DNA from: a virus
Lineage: Duplodnaviria > Heunggongvirae > Uroviricota > Caudoviricetes
Direction: 5' to 3' (one strand)
DNA: 4,200 nucleotides
Virus record (IMG/VR): IMGVR_UViG_2541047928_000001
Coordinates: 1-4,200 of that record
Under the pieces are notes generated by a model. That model had not been told where the DNA came from. It saw only the letters and a program-made list of their open reading frames with translations, and ran no database searches. The number at the start of each line of letters is the position of its first letter. Position 1 is the stretch's first letter. Made by a program: the position numbers and the translations under genes. Below, one piece after another: positions 1 through 4,200 of this stretch.

Positions 1-265
1 GCTTGTGAATTTGTATCGTCATGCCGCTTTGAGTGGTGACTACAACGACAGAACCAGGCTGAAGACTGTTAAGATTGAATGCTTCGTAAAACGAATCCAA
101 TGCCAGTGCTTTTTTATTCTTTCTGTTCCACCAACGCCATCCCTTGCTACAGGCTACACTGACAATCCACTGTCCACTCCTGTAAGCCATATAAAACCAG
201 ATGAGCAAAACCTGAAGGAAGGCTATCCAGTCAATAATCGTATATTTCGCGAAGGAGTCCATCAC
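1..265 (-). CDS. Partial CDS (N-terminal part only, continues past window start): small predicted membrane protein, MMDSFAKYTIIDWIAFLQVLLIWFYMAYRSGQWIVSVACSKGWRWWNRKNKKALALDSFYEAFNLNSLQPGSVVVVTTQSGMTIQIHK...
   Basis: Hand translation of the minus strand. ATG at 265-263 (second ATG at 262-260) overlaps the stop of the upstream gene at 262-264 (ATGA). A perfect SD AGGAGGT lies 4-7 nt upstream. This frame has no stop codon down to position 1. A roughly 20-residue hydrophobic stretch is followed by a W/K/R-rich segment. Absent from the ORF track, presumably because no stop lies inside the window. Confidence 0.5.
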   Translation of the reverse strand, partial: MMDSFAKYTIIDWIAFLQVLLIWFYMAYRSGQWIVSVACSKGWRWWNRKNKKALALDSFYEAFNLNSLQPGSVVVVTTQSGMTIQIHK

Positions 266-756
266 TTCACCTCCTGCGGCGGTTCCGGTAGCGGCATCCA
301 GTGGGTTACACCGCCAATTGGCTCATCGTCGTCGTACTCCAATGCTGCTATATAGAACCCGTCACGACGAGAATAAGAAATCCCTGACATTACAATGCCA
401 TCAGAAACAACAATAATGTCACCCGTTTCTTCCGGCATTCGATCACTACAGCTTATCCAACCATCCGGAGTTACCGGCACTGGCTTGGCGGTATAAAGCG
501 GTGTTATATCTGCCCGAAAATTACATGCTTTATGCAGCCGCACCCACCGTTCGACTTCTGCTTTGTCAGAATACATACCAGTGAACGTGTTATATTCACG
601 GTCAATTTGCGTGAAGGTTACCTTCCACGCCACCGGCTCTGCCTCAAGCGATGCCAGTGCAATCCGTGCCAGTTCCATTTGTTCGCCACGGGTAAGCCCG
701 TTTTCAAGCGGGTATTTAATGAACAATTCGATACGTTCTTTAGTGATAGTGCTCAT
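262..756 (-). CDS. DUF551-like phage protein (164 aa), function unknown
   Basis: Track ORF 262..798 trimmed to the internal ATG at 756-754, which has a strong SD (AAAGGAGAG, 5-nt spacer) and sits 1 nt after the stop of the upstream gene. The ATG at 798 has no SD and would overlap the upstream gene by 40 nt. The C-terminal half (GWISCSDRMPEE ... VTHWMPLPEPP) resembles the DUF551 motif as I recall it; not search-verified. Confidence 0.65.
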   Translation of the reverse strand: MSTITKERIELFIKYPLENGLTRGEQMELARIALASLEAEPVAWKVTFTQIDREYNTFTGMYSDKAEVERWVRLHKACNFRADITPLYTAKPVPVTPDGWISCSDRMPEETGDIIVVSDGIVMSGISYSRRDGFYIAALEYDDDEPIGGVTHWMPLPEPPQEVK

Positions 757-757
757 A

Positions 758-1402
758 TCACTCTCCTTTGATGCGAATGCCAGCGGCGCGGGAATCATTC
801 CATCGCTTTACTTCTTCACGAATTACGTCAATGCATTCTTTCGAATCCATTAGGTAATCTTCATCAAAAAGACGTTCCTGTTCGTTTTCTATCGCAACAA
901 TGATTGCTTCAACTAACTTTTGTGCCTGAGAACCACTTTCTAACTCTGCAATGCGCTTCTCTGCGGCCTCTGCCCTGCATTGTTCCCGTTGGAACATTTT
1001 GTGGGTGCGGTCGAGCGCCTCAAGTCTGGCTGCTGATGTTTTCTCTTCTGCTTCAAGCTCAACGCGCAGCTTCCCTACCGTTAGCGCAATATCCTCGTTC
1101 TCCTTGTCGCGGGATTTTATGTATTGCTGGTTTCTTTCCCGTTCATCCAGTAGTGCCAGCGCAACATTTGGATTAAAGGCAGCAATAAATTCAGCGTTTG
1201 CGTAAGCCTGAGCATCTGTTTCAACCAGGCAGTTAACATGACATTCTGCAATCACGCCACCGGGTTCTCCTTTCCATTTTTGACAAACAAAAACTCCTGT
1301 TAAATTGCCGTGCTGGTTAACAGATGTATGCCCTACGATGTAGCTTCCTTTAGTTGCTTTCTCTGCCTTTTCACGCAGTGCCTGATAGTTAATCTCGCTC
1401 AC
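758..1402 (-). CDS. ead/Ea22-like family protein (214 aa)
   Basis: Track ORF. GTG start at 1402-1400 overlaps the upstream stop (GTGA); SD GGAGG lies 7 nt upstream. The N-terminus ([19 protein letters not shown]...) and AAFNPNVALALLDE motif resemble ead/Ea22-like proteins of lambdoid prophages. The central region is charged and coiled-coil-like. Confidence 0.7.
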   Translation of the reverse strand: MSEINYQALREKAEKATKGSYIVGHTSVNQHGNLTGVFVCQKWKGEPGGVIAECHVNCLVETDAQAYANAEFIAAFNPNVALALLDERERNQQYIKSRDKENEDIALTVGKLRVELEAEEKTSAARLEALDRTHKMFQREQCRAEAAEKRIAELESGSQAQKLVEAIIVAIENEQERLFDEDYLMDSKECIDVIREEVKRWNDSRAAGIRIKGE

Positions 1403-1623
1403 TCTTCATCCTCCAAGTCGGCAACGGCGTCCATCACATCAGAACCGCGAATAACCTCAAAAGCACGGCAGGCCATTTGAAATACCAGTTGCTCTTGCGG
1501 GTGAGGAGACTCCCAATATTTGAAGCCTGGGCGATGCGTGTACCCCATCATTGAATAAAAATCACCAGCAAGCTTAATCGCGGCATCGACAAGCTCTCTG
1601 TTAGTCATTCTTTTTCCGCTCAC
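1399..1623 (-). CDS. Hypothetical small protein (74 aa as called), acidic C-terminus
   Basis: Track ORF 1399..1644 trimmed to an in-frame GTG at 1623-1621, preceded by SD AAGGAGG (6-nt spacer) and overlapping the upstream stop (GTGA). An alternative ATG at 1608 would give 69 aa. No recognisable family. Confidence 0.5.
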
Positions 1624-1787
1624 TGGTTGCCTCCTTTGCGCCACATCGCATTCAGATATTTGTTTTGATTCACTGACGGAAAAGAATTTCTCTTAAGCAA
1701 TTCCTCTCTCGATGGCATTGGCTTTACGCGTTGGCGAATAATCATTTCTGCCGGAAGAATGCCGGGATTGTATGCAAGTCCTCTCAT
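1620..1787 (-). CDS. Hypothetical small basic protein (55 aa)
   Basis: Track ORF 1620..1820 trimmed to the ATG at 1787-1785, which has SD GAGGA (7-nt spacer) and starts 10 nt after the upstream stop. The ATG at 1820 lacks an SD and overlaps the upstream gene. Net basic composition. Confidence 0.45.
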
Positions 1788-1797
1788 GGTAAATTCC

Positions 1798-2094
1798 TCA
1801 GTCATTACTGATAGCGCCATAGCGTGAGCGGTAATTACGCAGGCGCGGGTCGATATATTCAGGGAATTTGTCTATTGTCGCTTTTCGCAACGGTCTCATT
1901 GCTGTTTCGTTTGTTCGGTCCTTCTCCTGTTTTAGCGCGAGTTGTATATCGCGTCGGTACATCCGTTCTGCTTTTGTTTCTGGTGTCAGAGCAAGAAACG
2001 CGTCGAAATTGTTTTTGATATTCTCCAGCACCTCCGCCTTGGAGCTACCGGAGCAGTTGCGCGGGTCATCCGCACCATACAGAGGCGCTGGCAT
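1798..2094 (-). CDS. Hypothetical protein (98 aa)
   Basis: Track ORF. ATG at 2094-2092 with a weak SD (AAGG, 8-nt spacer), 23 nt downstream of the preceding stop. Same strand and tight spacing as the rest of the operon. No recognisable family. Confidence 0.55.
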
Positions 2095-2117
2095 AATGGG
2101 AGCCTTATTTTCAGTAA

Positions 2118-2705
2118 TCAGAAAGCAGGGTAATCGTTCTGGCTGTAACCATAATCATCTGCATGATTCTGGCTTACGTTTTTAGAGCGATTGTCTTTAT
2201 CTTTGAGGCTGGCAACCATGTCGGCGATAGTTTCTGGTTGCTTGCCTTCTGCCTTTTCTTTAAGGGTTTGACCTGTTTGTGCAATAAACGGGATGCGTAT
2301 TTCCATCTGGTAGCTGTCTGCGCCAGTCTTTTTGTTTGTGGTTAATACTTTCTGGAGCACTAACCCGATTTTCTTTCCATGAAATTCAGGTGCAACAAAT
2401 TTACTGGCGGAAACCATATGCTGCGTTAATTGTCCAATCCCGGCACACCCCATCATGGCGTGAACGACATTTGCGCCAAATTTGTTTTCCGTTCCGTCAT
2501 TTTTCTGAACACAAACGCTAAGATACTGGATTTTACGTCCGTCGTCGGATTCTCCAGAAAACTCAATAAATTTGGCTCCTTTTTCTGATTTCTTTAGTTC
2601 TGCTTCAGTAATGGTAATGATATGGGCGCCAGTTTCGTTAATAAAACCACCTTGCCCTGCGGTCAGTGCTGCTTCTTCGTTATAAGTAAAAATCACGTTG
2701 CTCAT
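2118..2705 (-). CDS. Putative ssDNA-binding partner of the adjacent ATPase (195 aa); possibly T7 gp2.5-like rather than a canonical SSB
   Basis: Track ORF. Its ATG overlaps the ATPase stop (ATGA), indicating translational coupling. The C-terminus ...ADDYGYSQNDYPAF is an acidic/aromatic tail ending in Phe, reminiscent of SSB and gp2.5 C-terminal tips. The N-terminus MSNVIFT loosely resembles T7 gp2.5 (MAKKIFT). There is no canonical SSB OB-fold signature. The functional call is an inference. Confidence 0.55.
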   Translation of the reverse strand: MSNVIFTYNEEAALTAGQGGFINETGAHIITITEAELKKSEKGAKFIEFSGESDDGRKIQYLSVCVQKNDGTENKFGANVVHAMMGCAGIGQLTQHMVSASKFVAPEFHGKKIGLVLQKVLTTNKKTGADSYQMEIRIPFIAQTGQTLKEKAEGKQPETIADMVASLKDKDNRSKNVSQNHADDYGYSQNDYPAF

Positions 2706-3382
2706 GCGGCGTTTTCCTTAATTTGATGAACATTATTGATGCCGTAGTAATCACAAACAGTGGCATCGACGAAAGAGAGATCGTTATCAATCTCATTGGA
2801 ATCAAACATTCCTATTGGGGATTTAACAGTGTCTGCACCGTTGTTTTTCGTGGTGAAAAAGAACTGGTCATCGCGGGTAAGGGTGCGAAGAACTATAGTA
2901 AACATGCCTTCGACAGTGATTTTCTCGTCCAGCATTTTGCCGATAGTCTTCATTTTCACACGCCCCATAGGGGTTTCTTCGGTGTGTGCGAGAAAATAGA
3001 CTCTCAGGTCATCAGGTGCATCCTGTGCAGCCTTAATCACCTCCCATGCGTGGCGGCCTATCTCAGTGAATTTATCAAACGATTTTTCTTCTGAGCGGCG
3101 CATAAACTCATTGCTCATCACATACTGGAAGTCATCAACAATAACGATTCTTTTCCCGTATTCGTGAGCACGCTTAATTACGGCAACTATTACGTCCCAT
3201 TTGTCAGTGGTAACTACGGTTCCTTTTTTTGCTCTGGCATCCCATGCCAGCCAGTCTTTTGATTTAAATGGAAGCGGCTTGCCTATTGGTTTTATAAGTA
3301 TTGCTTCCTCTGGATTGATATTTCTCATGCTGGTTGATTTTCCGGTGCCAGATTCACCGAGTATTAATGTCGCAGTTCCCAT
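2702..3382 (-). CDS. P-loop ATPase, probably Sak4-like (AAA_24 / RecA-like core) phage recombination protein (226 aa)
   Basis: Track ORF. Walker A GESGTGKST at residues 9-17 and a Walker B-like hhhhDD motif (RIVIVDD). Size and N-terminal P-loop fit the small RecA-like Sak4 family. It sits where lambdoid phages carry their recombination module, directly after kil. SD GAGG with a 6-nt spacer. Confidence 0.7.
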   Translation of the reverse strand: MGTATLILGESGTGKSTSMRNINPEEAILIKPIGKPLPFKSKDWLAWDARAKKGTVVTTDKWDVIVAVIKRAHEYGKRIVIVDDFQYVMSNEFMRRSEEKSFDKFTEIGRHAWEVIKAAQDAPDDLRVYFLAHTEETPMGRVKMKTIGKMLDEKITVEGMFTIVLRTLTRDDQFFFTTKNNGADTVKSPIGMFDSNEIDNDLSFVDATVCDYYGINNVHQIKENAA

Positions 3383-3390
3383 AATTTGCC

Positions 3391-3579
3391 TCAGAATGGT
3401 AATTCGGATGGGGAGGAAAGAAACTCACGCTCATTCATGCGCTCTCTTTGTGCCTGCCATAAGCAAAGTTGTTTCTTTGATTTATCTCCCGCTTTACGCC
3501 AGTAACGAGCCTCAGCAATGTGATATTCTCTTTTTAATCGACTTAACTCTGGAGTTTTCGCCAGTTCTACCGGAATCAT
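3391..3579 (-). CDS. Hypothetical small basic protein (62 aa)
   Basis: Track ORF 3391..3591 trimmed to the ATG at 3579-3577, which has SD GGAGGT (5-nt spacer) and overlaps the kil stop (ATGA). Lys/Arg-rich. No recognisable family. Confidence 0.5.
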   Translation of the reverse strand: MIPVELAKTPELSRLKREYHIAEARYWRKAGDKSKKQLCLWQAQRERMNEREFLSSPSELPF

Positions 3580-3689
3580 TTTGACCTCCATTTTCTGTAG
3601 GCTTCGACGGCCTCACGAAACATCTTTTCATCGCCAATAAAAGTGGCGATAGTGAATTTAGTCTGGATAGCCATAAGTGTTTGATCCAT
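3576..3689 (-). CDS. kil: Kil-like host cell-division inhibitor (37 aa as called)
   Basis: Internal ATG at 3689-3687 of track ORF 3576..3815, with SD AGGAG (8-nt spacer). The product MDQTLMAIQTKFTIATFIGDEKMFREAVEAYRKWRSK matches my recollection of the lambda Kil N-terminus. It starts 32 nt inside the cIII 3' end, the same overlap I recall for lambda. The upstream part of the track ORF is an artefact of the overlapping cIII frame. Confidence 0.7.
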   Translation of the reverse strand: MDQTLMAIQTKFTIATFIGDEKMFREAVEAYRKWRSK

Positions 3690-3822
3690 TTTTTGGGACT
3701 CCTGGCTGATTAAGTATGTCGATAAGGCGTTTCCATCCGTCACGTAATTTACGGGTGATTCGTTCAAGTAAAGATTCGGAAGGGCAGCCAGCAACAGGCC
3801 ACCCTGCAATGGCATATTGCAT
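3658..3822 (-). CDS. cIII: CIII, FtsH/HflB protease inhibitor that stabilises CII (54 aa)
   Basis: Not in the ORF track (54 aa). Hand translation from ATG 3822-3820 to TAA 3660-3658 gives MQYAIAGWPVAGCPSESLLERITRKLRDGWKRLIDILNQPGVPKNGSNTYGYPD, which matches lambda CIII as I recall it. SD AAGGAG at 3834-3829 with a 6-nt spacer. Confidence 0.85.
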   Translation of the reverse strand: MQYAIAGWPVAGCPSESLLERITRKLRDGWKRLIDILNQPGVPKNGSNTYGYPD

Positions 3823-3840
3823 GGTGTGCTCCTTATTTAT

Positions 3841-3871
3841 ACATAACGAAAAACGCCTCGAGTGAAGCGTT
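3841..3871 (-). terminator. Candidate intrinsic terminator or regulatory hairpin between the 97-aa ORF and cIII
   Basis: Minus-strand RNA: AACGCUUC, loop ACUC, GAGGCGUU (8 bp including one G-U pair), followed by UUUCGUU. It lies just upstream of the cIII SD. Likely read through under antitermination if this is a pL-type operon. Confidence 0.35.
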
Positions 3872-3894
3872 ATTGGTATGCGGTAACGCCGCGC

Positions 3895-4188
3895 TCAGGC
3901 GGCTTTGATAGTCATATCATCTGAATCAAATATTCCTGATGTATCGATATCGGTAATTCTTATTCCTTCGCTACCATCCATTGGAGGCCATCCTTCCTGA
4001 CCATTTCCATCATTCCAGTCGAACTCACACACAACACCATATGCATTTAAGTCGCTTGAAATTGCTATAAGCAGAGCATGTTGCGCCAGCATGATTAATA
4101 CAGCATTTAATACAGAGCCGTGTTTATTGAGTCGGTATTCAGAGTCTGACCAGAAATTATTAATCTGGTGAAGTTTTTCCTCTGTCAT
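3895..4188 (-). CDS. Hypothetical acidic protein (97 aa)
   Basis: Track ORF. Its ATG at 4188-4186 overlaps the TAA of an upstream gene that ends at 4188-4190 (TAATG). The composition is strongly acidic (about 16 D/E against 5 K/R), with a D-rich C-terminal region. No recognisable family. Confidence 0.6.
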   Translation of the reverse strand: MTEEKLHQINNFWSDSEYRLNKHGSVLNAVLIMLAQHALLIAISSDLNAYGVVCEFDWNDGNGQEGWPPMDGSEGIRITDIDTSGIFDSDDMTIKAA

Positions 4189-4200
4189 TACGTCATGGTC

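Follow-up and report, generated by a model that had tools for sequence, protein, structure and literature searches.

The DNA analyzed here covers positions 1 to 4,200 of a Caudoviricetes record in IMG/VR (IMGVR_UViG_2541047928_000001), and we refer to this whole 4,200-nucleotide stretch as the window. All genes of the window lie on the minus strand. Its segment 1399-2094 is located in the early-left (PL) operon of a lambdoid prophage and consists of three ORFs of 98, 55 and 74 aa, designated ORF-A (abc2), ORF-B (the DUF2737 family gene) and ORF-C. The features of the segment and of its flanking genes are, from high to low coordinates:

2702..3382, minus strand: Sak4-like single-strand annealing ATPase (HK620 HkaL), context gene; phrog_2872, 1e-107; AAA_24 (PMC5928155)
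2118..2705, minus strand: DUF669-type phage SSB (HK620 HkaK / SSB-2), context gene; phrog_743, 7e-66 (PMC5928155)
2103..2106, minus strand: SD of abc2, AAGG, weak, 8 nt upstream of the ORF-A start, found by sequence inspection
1798..2094, minus strand: ORF-A (ORF 1, abc2), ATG at 2094, TGA at 1800-1798, 98 aa
1795..1799, minus strand: SD of the DUF2737 gene, GAGGA, 7 nt upstream of ORF-B, overlapping the abc2 stop codon
1620..1787, minus strand: ORF-B (ORF 2, DUF2737 family gene), ATG at 1787, TGA at 1622-1620, 55 aa
1624..1639, minus strand: 16-nt linker GCAAAGGAGGCAACCA within the 3' end of the DUF2737 gene, carrying the ORF-C SD and marking a mosaic joint
1399..1623, minus strand: ORF-C (ORF 3), GTG at 1623, TGA at 1401-1399, 74 aa
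758..1402, minus strand: Ead/Ea22-like protein, 214 aa, context gene; PF13935, 3e-35; its GTG start overlaps the ORF-C stop

Reading the sequence bore out the layout given in a preliminary description of this DNA, which had reported three ORFs of these sizes with 10-nt and GTGA junctions and an SD for each. The ORF-A stop is followed by a 10-nt spacer (1797-1788, by sequence inspection) and then the ORF-B start; the ORF-B stop and the ORF-C start share a GTGA overlap (1623-1620), and so do the ORF-C stop and the GTG start of the Ea22-like gene (1402-1399). The SD of ORF-C is AGGAGG, 6 nt upstream of the start codon. The middle protein is, as had been stated, strongly basic (pI 11.0, with 10 K+R and 3 D+E), and the last one ends in an acidic tail (DLEDEE; pI 4.9).

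The 55-aa start of ORF-B coincides with position 1 of the Pfam model and with the PGAP call; a longer 66-aa form beginning at the ATG at 1820 was rejected on the start of the Pfam model, the SD position and the homologue alignments. An 81-aa longer version in the mechanical ORF list was rejected on the same grounds. Among 80 related loci, GTG occupies the position of the ORF-C start at 1623 in 43 and ATG in 37, and an SD lies 6-8 nt upstream in every one of them. PGAP places the start of ORF-C at an ATG at 1608, and the resulting 69-aa form is possible because this ATG is also invariant in the related loci.

Comparison with diverged alleles indicated purifying selection on all three ORFs, with dN/dS of ~0.4 for ORF-A, 0.09-0.5 for ORF-B and ~0.06 for ORF-C. 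We found no promoter-like or terminator-like site and no Rfam match within 1399-2094, no PHROG match for plus-strand ORFs overlapping the segment, and no Chi site in the window. The same DNA is present at 100% identity in a prophage of E. coli CE10, where it had already been annotated by PGAP. The identities, anatomy, selection, synteny and modularity of the three genes were observed directly, and we regard it as highly probable that these are three separate, genuinely translated PL-operon genes that belong to two mosaic modules, one made of abc2 and the DUF2737 gene and the other of ORF-C.

Sequence and profile searches of each protein identified Abc2 and placed the other two proteins in the DUF2737 and phrog_4132 families, and fold searches returned no informative match for ORF-C. 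Of three ORFs that had all been called unknown, one thus matches a protein of known phage function. By sequence, ORF-A is Abc2, an orthologue of the P22 anti-RecBCD protein 2. It matches Pfam PF11043 (Anti-RecBCD_p2) at 1.5e-35 (121.7 bits, cut-off 25), with residues 1-98 on profile positions 1-97 of 97, and phrog_656 ('abc2 anti-RecBCD') at 5e-45. Its match to the P22 Abc2 chain in PDB 8b1t_A (3.7e-32) aligns residues 1-98 to 1-97 with a single one-residue gap, and PGAP names the CE10 copy 'phage anti-RecBCD protein' (WP_001111288.1). Identity to P22 Abc2 is only ~61%, but the N-terminus, Pro68 and the C-terminal IDPRLR.YRSRY motif are all kept. Residues 66-70 of the window protein read MRPLR; in P22, P68 sits in the active site of PpiB and is needed for PpiB co-purification (PMC9836394). 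The window allele is 100% identical in Stx2a-converting phages.

The preliminary description had placed this gene between the recombination module and ea22. Gene order contradicts that placement: abc2 is the last gene of the module, which runs hkaM-like, Sak4, SSB, Abc2 and is of the HK620/HK75 type (hkaM-sak4-ssb-abc2; PMC5928155, PMC12315714). P22 abc2 also lies at the distal end of its recombination module and is also followed after 10 nt by a DUF2737 gene, but it is paired with Erf, Arf and Abc1, whereas window Abc2 is paired with Sak4 and a DUF669-type SSB.

We assign ORF-B, on profile matches, to the DUF2737 family, whose members are also known as P22 orf56, HK620 hkaI and HK97 gp38. The match to Pfam PF10930 (9e-32, 109.2 bits, cut-off 25) spans residues 1-51 on profile positions 1-51 of 53, and that to phrog_1117 reaches 2e-37. 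ORF-B carries the C-terminal core motif of the family, P-x-P-[ST]-R-[EK]-E-L-x-x-R-x-S-F ... N-K-[YW]-L-N; among aligned members from temperate and virulent phages, residues 23, R27, E29, R33, S35, F36 and L45 are invariant. The window peptide is 98% identical to HK620 hkaI and 77% identical to P22 orf56, and both counterparts share its length, its place after abc2 and the 10-nt spacer. The last few residues (KGGNQ) vary among DUF2737 alleles, since the 3' end of the gene contains the joint to the next module of the mosaic. An AF2 model of ORF-B was of low confidence (pLDDT 63, pTM 0.23) and too poor for a fold search; the low confidence would fit a peptide folding upon contact with its partner. 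A full-text literature search found no published function for DUF2737, hkaI or orf56 and a passing mention of DUF2737 in one phage paper; in two phage accessory-gene screens, the family appears solely in gene-neighborhood tables of the supplement.

The DUF2737 gene is closely tied to abc2. Of 203 sampled loci, 200 have a family member downstream of abc2, a count that exceeds the number of independent observations, as the sampled loci are interrelated. When the loci were divided into three Abc2 types that are 36-61% identical, a DUF2737 profile match was present downstream in 77/77, 77/80 and 46/46 of them, the profile used containing, for the mEp554-type loci, one of their own members. Against the independent Pfam DUF2737 model, the mEp554-type member scored 17.5 bits (E = 0.004), where the cut-off is 25; for the most divergent abc2 lineage, the assignment is weaker because of this below-threshold match and of the profile that included its own member. 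The spacer between the two genes is exactly 10 nt in 66 of the 77 window-type loci, and the same spacing is found in P22, HK629 and CE10. The phage collection contained 232 records with Abc2 and 221 with full-length DUF2737. Virulent Guernseyvirinae phages carry DUF2737 without Abc2, and the family is therefore not strictly dependent on Abc2.

ORF-C is a strongly conserved, acidic three-helix protein from an unnamed, widespread phage family and corresponds to the C-terminal domain of phrog_4132, which it matches at 4e-43 over profile positions 103-178 of 179. An exhaustive HMMER search with a reciprocal profile collected at least 408 cluster representatives of this family at E<=1e-3, most of them stand-alone proteins of 66-90 aa; the 179-aa phrog_4132 proteins have an extra N-terminal region that ORF-C lacks. 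The AF2 model of ORF-C (pLDDT 91.3) predicts helices at residues 8-25, 42-59 and 63-73. The same three-helix fold is predicted for the C-terminal part of U5PW22 from Acinetobacter phage Presley (TM-score 0.86 on the query, 25% identity). Sequence searches of Pfam, NCBIfam, PADLOC and PDB gave no match for ORF-C, and fold searches gave no informative one. The window protein has the family core L-A-x-x-F-Y ... G-[YH] ... H-P-x-E ... W-x-M-A ... G-T-D-x-x-D-A-L, followed by the acidic C-terminus. L18, A19, F22, Y23, G27, H41, P42, E44, A51 and A54 are invariant in a 10-sequence alignment that includes distant members, and only A19 and G27 are still invariant in a 53-sequence family alignment. Pfam and PHROG scans of 20 long family members revealed no informative partner domain; a MazG/DUF550-like N-terminus suspected in one protein (P0096) had no Pfam support. 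The closest named relatives, HK629 gp34 and phiV10 p47, are 97.5% identical to ORF-C, and we found nothing functional about them in the literature.

Several observations show that ORF-C is an independent, self-contained mosaic module with its own SD. In IMG/VR loci it is preceded by nine clusters of upstream genes and followed by four clusters of downstream genes, and behind most of the nine unrelated upstream clusters it is preceded by the linker GCAAAGGAGGCAACCA, with 1-2 substitutions in some loci. The identity of Stx-phage DNA to the query ends at approximately window position 1639. DUF2737 is the immediate upstream neighbor of ORF-C in only 3 of 80 related IMG/VR loci. HK629 has an HNH endonuclease gene and a 151-aa gene between DUF2737 and gp34, whereas nothing separates the two genes in the window, and in phiV10, p47 lies after replication genes, in a different operon. 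Moreover, at least 80% of an 801-base query (window 1350-2150) was found in one place in only 21 of 5,426 complete E. coli genomes. The idea of a fixed three-gene cluster is thus not upheld. Beyond these relatives, the family extends over five phyla, amid phage replication, methylase and antirepressor genes; the distant loci, which were located in genome contigs by a hand-made DNA pattern, showed no recurrent partner of ORF-C, the neighbors being generic phage early or replication genes.

The preliminary description had likened the three genes to the orf60a/orf63/orf61 segment of lambda and suggested that they might serve host takeover or anti-defence. Our data support the likeness in position, as the lambda genes also encode small early PL-operon proteins between the recombination genes and ea22, but not in sequence: when the three window proteins were compared with lambda orf60a, orf63, orf61, Ea22 and Gam by BLASTP, the best E value was 0.7. 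Lambda orf60a and orf63 belong to DUF1317 and DUF1382, neither of which turned up in Pfam searches with the three proteins at E<=0.1, whereas the window families are PF11043 and PF10930. By sequence comparison, the true counterparts are P22 abc2 and orf56, HK620 hkaJ and hkaI, and HK629 gp34 or phiV10 p47. A block of three exo-xis-like takeover or anti-defence genes, or in a weaker form a DUF2737 peptide and/or ORF-C that stand alone and are unrelated to Abc2, nevertheless has points in its favor. The operon position is shared with the lambda exo-xis genes, which influence the lysis-lysogeny decision (PMC7093339, PMC10834534); DUF2737 and ORF-C are both small, charged and, judging by position, early-expressed; the site between DUF2737 and the Ea22-like gene is an insertion hot spot that elsewhere holds HNH endonuclease, DUF4752 or DUF5405 genes; and the stand-alone form fits the presence of DUF2737 without Abc2 in virulent phages. 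Against it, besides the lack of sequence similarity to the lambda proteins, one of the three genes is the known abc2. An anti-defence or takeover role is thus borne out for Abc2, and a search of PADLOC-DB with the three proteins and three neighboring proteins found no family at E<=0.01, nor does any of the three match a named anti-defence protein. The very strong purifying selection on ORF-C also contrasts with the rapid evolution that characterizes many anti-defence genes. We consider this explanation, in either form, rather unlikely.

Alternatively, ORF-C could be a dedicated partner or regulator of the downstream Ea22-like protein, translationally coupled to it and acting in the lysis-lysogeny decision. 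The GTGA overlap of the two genes speaks for this, as do the description of lambda Ea22 as pro-lysogenic (PMC7093339, PMC10834534) and the finding that in 42 of 74 related loci the gene immediately downstream of ORF-C is Ea22-like, an arrangement also seen in phiV10 with its different operon. However, the next gene encodes an unrelated 103-aa protein in 29 of these loci and something else in the remaining 3, and family members in other phyla adjoin DnaB, methylase and KilA-N/ANT genes with no Ea22-like gene beside them. Suspected ORF-C/Ea22-like fusion proteins (P0117 and P0153) were not confirmed (BLASTP E = 0.07-0.4), and we judge a dedicated pairing with Ea22 to be quite improbable. Finally, it is very hard to believe that ORF-B, ORF-C or both arose by chance or are the remains of decayed genes, with ORF-C the unexpressed C-terminal half of a 179-aa phrog_4132 protein: partial coverage of that profile, a GTG start and the different starts chosen by PGAP and phage annotators would fit, but most family members stand alone at this size, the dN/dS values of both genes are low, the ORF-C start codon and SD are kept in all 80 related loci, and PF10930 covers ORF-B almost from end to end (residues 1-51 of 55).

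The separate-gene reading, with abc2 and DUF2737 in one module and ORF-C in another, leads to the following picture of function. By homology to the solved cryo-EM complex of P22 Abc2 with RecBCD (PDB 8B1T/8B1U; PMC9836394), window Abc2 would bind the Chi-recognition (inactivated helicase) domains of RecC and engage host PpiB through Pro68. RecBCD would then be reprogrammed rather than blocked, with loss of Chi activation, and the resected end would be handed to the phage annealing system, the Sak4 and DUF669-type SSB encoded just upstream. As an outcome, phage DNA ends would be protected and recombination-dependent growth supported. Window Abc2 is only ~61% identical to the P22 protein, and we infer its mechanism, including binding to E. 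coli RecC and loss of the Chi response, from that homology. Lambda Gam and T7 gp5.9 have the same target and the same end-protecting purpose (PMC9836394), but they bear no sequence relationship to Abc2 and act differently: they block the site where DNA binds and leave RecBCD without any of its activities, whereas Abc2 binds RecC and modulates the enzyme (PMC9836394, PMC12315714). How Abc2 redirects RecBCD towards phage recombinases was left open in the discussion of the structural study (PMC9836394).

The DUF2737 peptide is presumably made together with Abc2, and its most likely role would be that of a short peptide, folding on its partner, that targets a host factor of the DNA-end or RecBCD pathway in which Abc2 also works. 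The Abc2 studies consulted here did not include it: the RecBCD-Abc2 complex was purified and solved without DUF2737 (PMC9836394), and HK620 recombineering was tested using Abc2 without DUF2737 (PMC5928155). Since the complex was obtained in this way, the peptide is dispensable for RecC binding. ORF-C, given its extreme constraint, small size, acidic tail and early-operon position, may work not as an enzyme but by binding stoichiometrically to a conserved DNA-metabolism protein of the host or the phage. In their boldest form, these two separate readings would make DUF2737 an unrecognized third component of the Abc2-type hijack of RecBCD, acting on RecBCD, PpiB or the DNA end, and the ORF-C family a new phylum-spanning early protein that neutralizes a conserved host DNA-metabolism or defence factor. 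We think these bold readings unlikely; if true, a third-component role would account for the near absence of abc2 genes lacking a DUF2737 companion, across Abc2 lineages down to 36% identity.

Taken together, the segment is mostly ordinary, and the main effect of our results is to correct an annotation guess, as the leading gene encodes Abc2, a textbook RecBCD modulator. It offers two modest leads, DUF2737 as a partner of Abc2 and the role of ORF-C. The near-invariant pairing of DUF2737 with abc2, at a fixed 10-nt spacer, makes this peptide a candidate cofactor for Abc2 that is cheap to test, and the ORF-C family, strongly constrained and spread over several bacterial phyla, is a reasonable candidate for a new domain family.

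The window covers part of the early-left operon of a lambdoid prophage, and the minus strand carries every gene in it. The segment at 1399-2094 consists of the well-characterised abc2, a gene for the catalogued DUF2737 and a member of a widespread, uncatalogued family of small proteins. Its three ORFs were present exactly as the preliminary description gave them, in coordinates and starts. Reading of the sequence confirmed the junctions (a spacer of 10 nucleotides between ORF-A and ORF-B; GTGA overlaps between ORF-B and ORF-C and between ORF-C and the Ea22-like gene) and a separate SD for each ORF:

2094 to 1798, minus strand: ORF-A, ATG start, 98 aa; SD AAGG, 8 nt from the start codon
1787 to 1620, minus strand: ORF-B, ATG start, 55 aa; SD GAGGA, 7 nt from the start codon
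1623 to 1399, minus strand: ORF-C, GTG start, 74 aa; SD AGGAGG, 6 nt from the start codon
1624-1639, minus strand: 16-nt SD-bearing linker GCAAAGGAGGCAACCA, ahead of ORF-C (at ~2485-2500 in the compared loci L008-L087)

The middle protein is indeed basic (pI 11.0), and the last (pI 4.9) has the acidic tail DLEDEE. Pairwise comparison with diverged alleles gave dN/dS values of ~0.4 for ORF-A, 0.09-0.5 for ORF-B and ~0.06 for ORF-C, and we therefore conclude that all three are real coding genes. Plus-strand ORFs overlapping the segment had no PHROG match. Since neither promoter-like nor terminator-like sites were found within 1399-2094, the three genes are read within the long PL transcript.

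By its sequence matches, ORF-A is Abc2. It matched Pfam PF11043 end to end (1.5e-35), phrog_656 ('abc2 anti-RecBCD') and, over its full length, the solved P22 Abc2 chain 8B1T_A (3.7e-32). The window allele is identical to that of Stx2a-converting phages but only ~61% identical to P22 Abc2. It keeps Pro68, a residue that in P22 Abc2 sits in the PpiB active site and whose mutation abolishes PpiB co-purification (PMC9836394). If the mechanism is taken by homology from the P22 work, Abc2 would here pass the resected DNA end on to the annealase of the phage (PMC9836394, PMC12315714). Upstream of ORF-A lie genes for a Sak4-like annealase and a DUF669-type SSB and an hkaM-like gene. This set, abc2 included, is the hkaM-sak4-ssb-abc2 recombination module of HK620 described by Hutinet et al. 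(PMC5928155), and also corresponds to the 'HK75' functional type of Rec module, anti-RecBCD + SSB + SAP (PMC12315714). Given this order, Abc2 belongs to the recombination module and not beyond it, so the placement of all three ORFs between that module and ea22 fails for ORF-A.

ORF-B is likewise identified from sequence as DUF2737, with a match to PF10930 from residue 1 (9e-32) and a further match to phrog_1117; its counterparts are P22 orf56, HK620 hkaI and HK97 gp38. No function for DUF2737 was recorded in the literature and databases searched. Family-wide conservation is confined to a C-terminal motif of ~25 residues, P.P[ST]R[EK]EL..R.SF...NK[YW]LN, and the AF2 model of ORF-B was poor (pLDDT 63, pTM 0.23).

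The most notable result on DUF2737 is its synteny with abc2. When IMG/VR loci were scored for a DUF2737 profile match at most 1.5 kb downstream of abc2, one was found in 77/77 window-type, 77/80 P22-type and 46/46 mEp554-type loci, usually directly adjacent. The spacer was exactly 10 nt in 66 of the 77 window-type loci, as it is in P22, HK629 and CE10, and the gene upstream of abc2 was variable (window-like SSB in 42/77, another gene in 35/77). However, these loci are mutually related. The profile was built with one mEp554-type member included, and the independent Pfam score of that member falls short of the threshold (E = 0.004). In virulent Guernseyvirinae phages, moreover, DUF2737 is present without Abc2, and Abc2 binds RecBCD without DUF2737 (PMC9836394). 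For these reasons, we treat a functional partnership between DUF2737 and Abc2 as a lead rather than an established result.

Phage mEp554 (1462-1982 of its locus) and MagusPhagus carry, after Erf and SSB, a divergent Abc2 (36-38% identical) that matched no Pfam family at E<=0.1; 14 nt past it lies a gene for a 74-aa protein with the DUF2737 core motif (Pfam E = 0.004). The Guernseyvirinae gene (Salmonella phage Ent1, 2441-2596; K1ind1, ~2450-2599) has in common only the C-terminal motif. Lysis genes precede it, and DUF7336 and NinH-like genes adjoin it, with abc2 not nearby.

The preliminary description of three unknown ORFs is only partly right, as it does not hold for abc2. ORF-C had no match in Pfam, NCBIfam, PADLOC or PDB sequences and matched only the C-terminal part of phrog_4132; its closest named relatives, HK629 gp34 and phiV10 p47, are both annotated hypothetical. 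A word-based search gave 88 clusters from Enterobacterales, and an exhaustive profile search 408 cluster representatives at E<=1e-3. Most members stand alone and are 66-90 aa long; some proteins of 110-300 aa have the domain at the C-terminus, and two (P0089, P0132) have tandem double copies. No Pfam family matched the N-terminal parts of the members of 140-300 aa. A DNA pattern for FY...GY...HPQE, used to find distant members, yielded true ones in Nostoc, Chryseobacterium, Verrucomicrobia, SAR324, Hyphomicrobiaceae and several Enterobacterales genera, where the neighbouring genes are early phage genes of a generic kind (DnaB, IstB/DnaC-like loader, Dam and C5 methylases, KilA-N/ANT, NinX, integrase). 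The AF2 model of ORF-C is a confident three-helix fold (pLDDT 91.3) that places the conserved aromatic, Gly, His and Pro residues in the predicted loop joining helix 1 to helix 2. Searches of solved and viral predicted structures gave no informative likeness. Position 1623 is a start codon in 80/80 related loci (GTG 43, ATG 37), each preceded by a suitably spaced SD. PGAP starts from an internal ATG, which is likewise invariant; the 74-aa form is favoured.

ORF-C is a mobile mosaic unit whose junction with DUF2737 forms a hot spot for insertions. In the 80 related loci, the upstream neighbours of ORF-C fall into nine unrelated types, with DUF2737 directly ahead in only three loci. Downstream, an Ea22-like gene (42/74 loci) or an unrelated 103-aa gene (29/74) was found, and the identified gene always abuts or overlaps the ORF-C stop. 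The linker GCAAAGGAGGCAACCA moves together with ORF-C: it stands between ORF-C and most of the nine upstream-gene clusters and provides the last codons of each such gene (e.g. ...KGGNQ*). It has the look of a recombination joint of the lambdoid mosaic kind; one allele group has a different, CAGGAG-type leader. Stx phage identity ends at ~1639 of the window, within the 3'-terminal part of the DUF2737 gene, which accounts for the C-terminal variation among DUF2737 alleles. In HK629, the DUF2737 gene and the ORF-C homologue are separated by a gene for an HNH endonuclease and a second gene of 151 aa (3222-4281 of its locus), and other E. coli prophages have DUF5405 or DUF4752 genes at this junction.

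Across its full 4.2 kb, the window is mosaic. Its stretch at 1350-2150 recurs with 100% identity within a prophage of E. coli O7:K1 CE10 (NC_017646), and PGAP names the three genes there 'phage anti-RecBCD protein', 'DUF2737 family protein' and 'hypothetical protein'. Only 21 of 5,426 E. coli genomes hold at least 80% of this 801-base stretch in one place, and no complete E. coli genome searched held the full window at >=80% coverage. When window 1-760 was compared, CE10 identity started only at ~644, and ~0.77 kb of extra DNA in CE10 interrupts its alignment to the window. The Ea22-like gene of CE10 is annotated as a pseudogene without its C-terminus; the window copy is intact (214 aa). Other features of the window were:

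262-798: DUF551 gene, after the intact Ea22-like gene
3815-3576: Kil-family ORF, overlapping the cIII ORF
3822-3658, minus strand: cIII ORF, its 5' end covered by the RF01804 match
3777-3835, minus strand: full-length match to Rfam RF01804, lambda cIII thermoregulator RNA (88.5 bits, E = 2e-21)
3871-3852, minus strand: terminator-like hairpin, just upstream of the RF01804 match
3895-4188, minus strand: DUF2528 family gene at the promoter-proximal end, 97 aa (PF10800, 3e-42)

The Chi site GCTGGTGG was absent from both strands of window 1-4200; with ~0.07 expected by chance, this is uninformative.

The proposed correspondence to lambda orf60a, orf63 and orf61, which have published effects on the lysis-lysogeny decision, stands for position but not for sequence, as BLASTP detected no similarity to the window proteins. 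Taken together, our results confirm what had been observed in the segment and partly support how it was interpreted. The questions worth following are whether DUF2737 may act as a cofactor in the Abc2 pathway, and what the highly constrained ORF-C domain binds.
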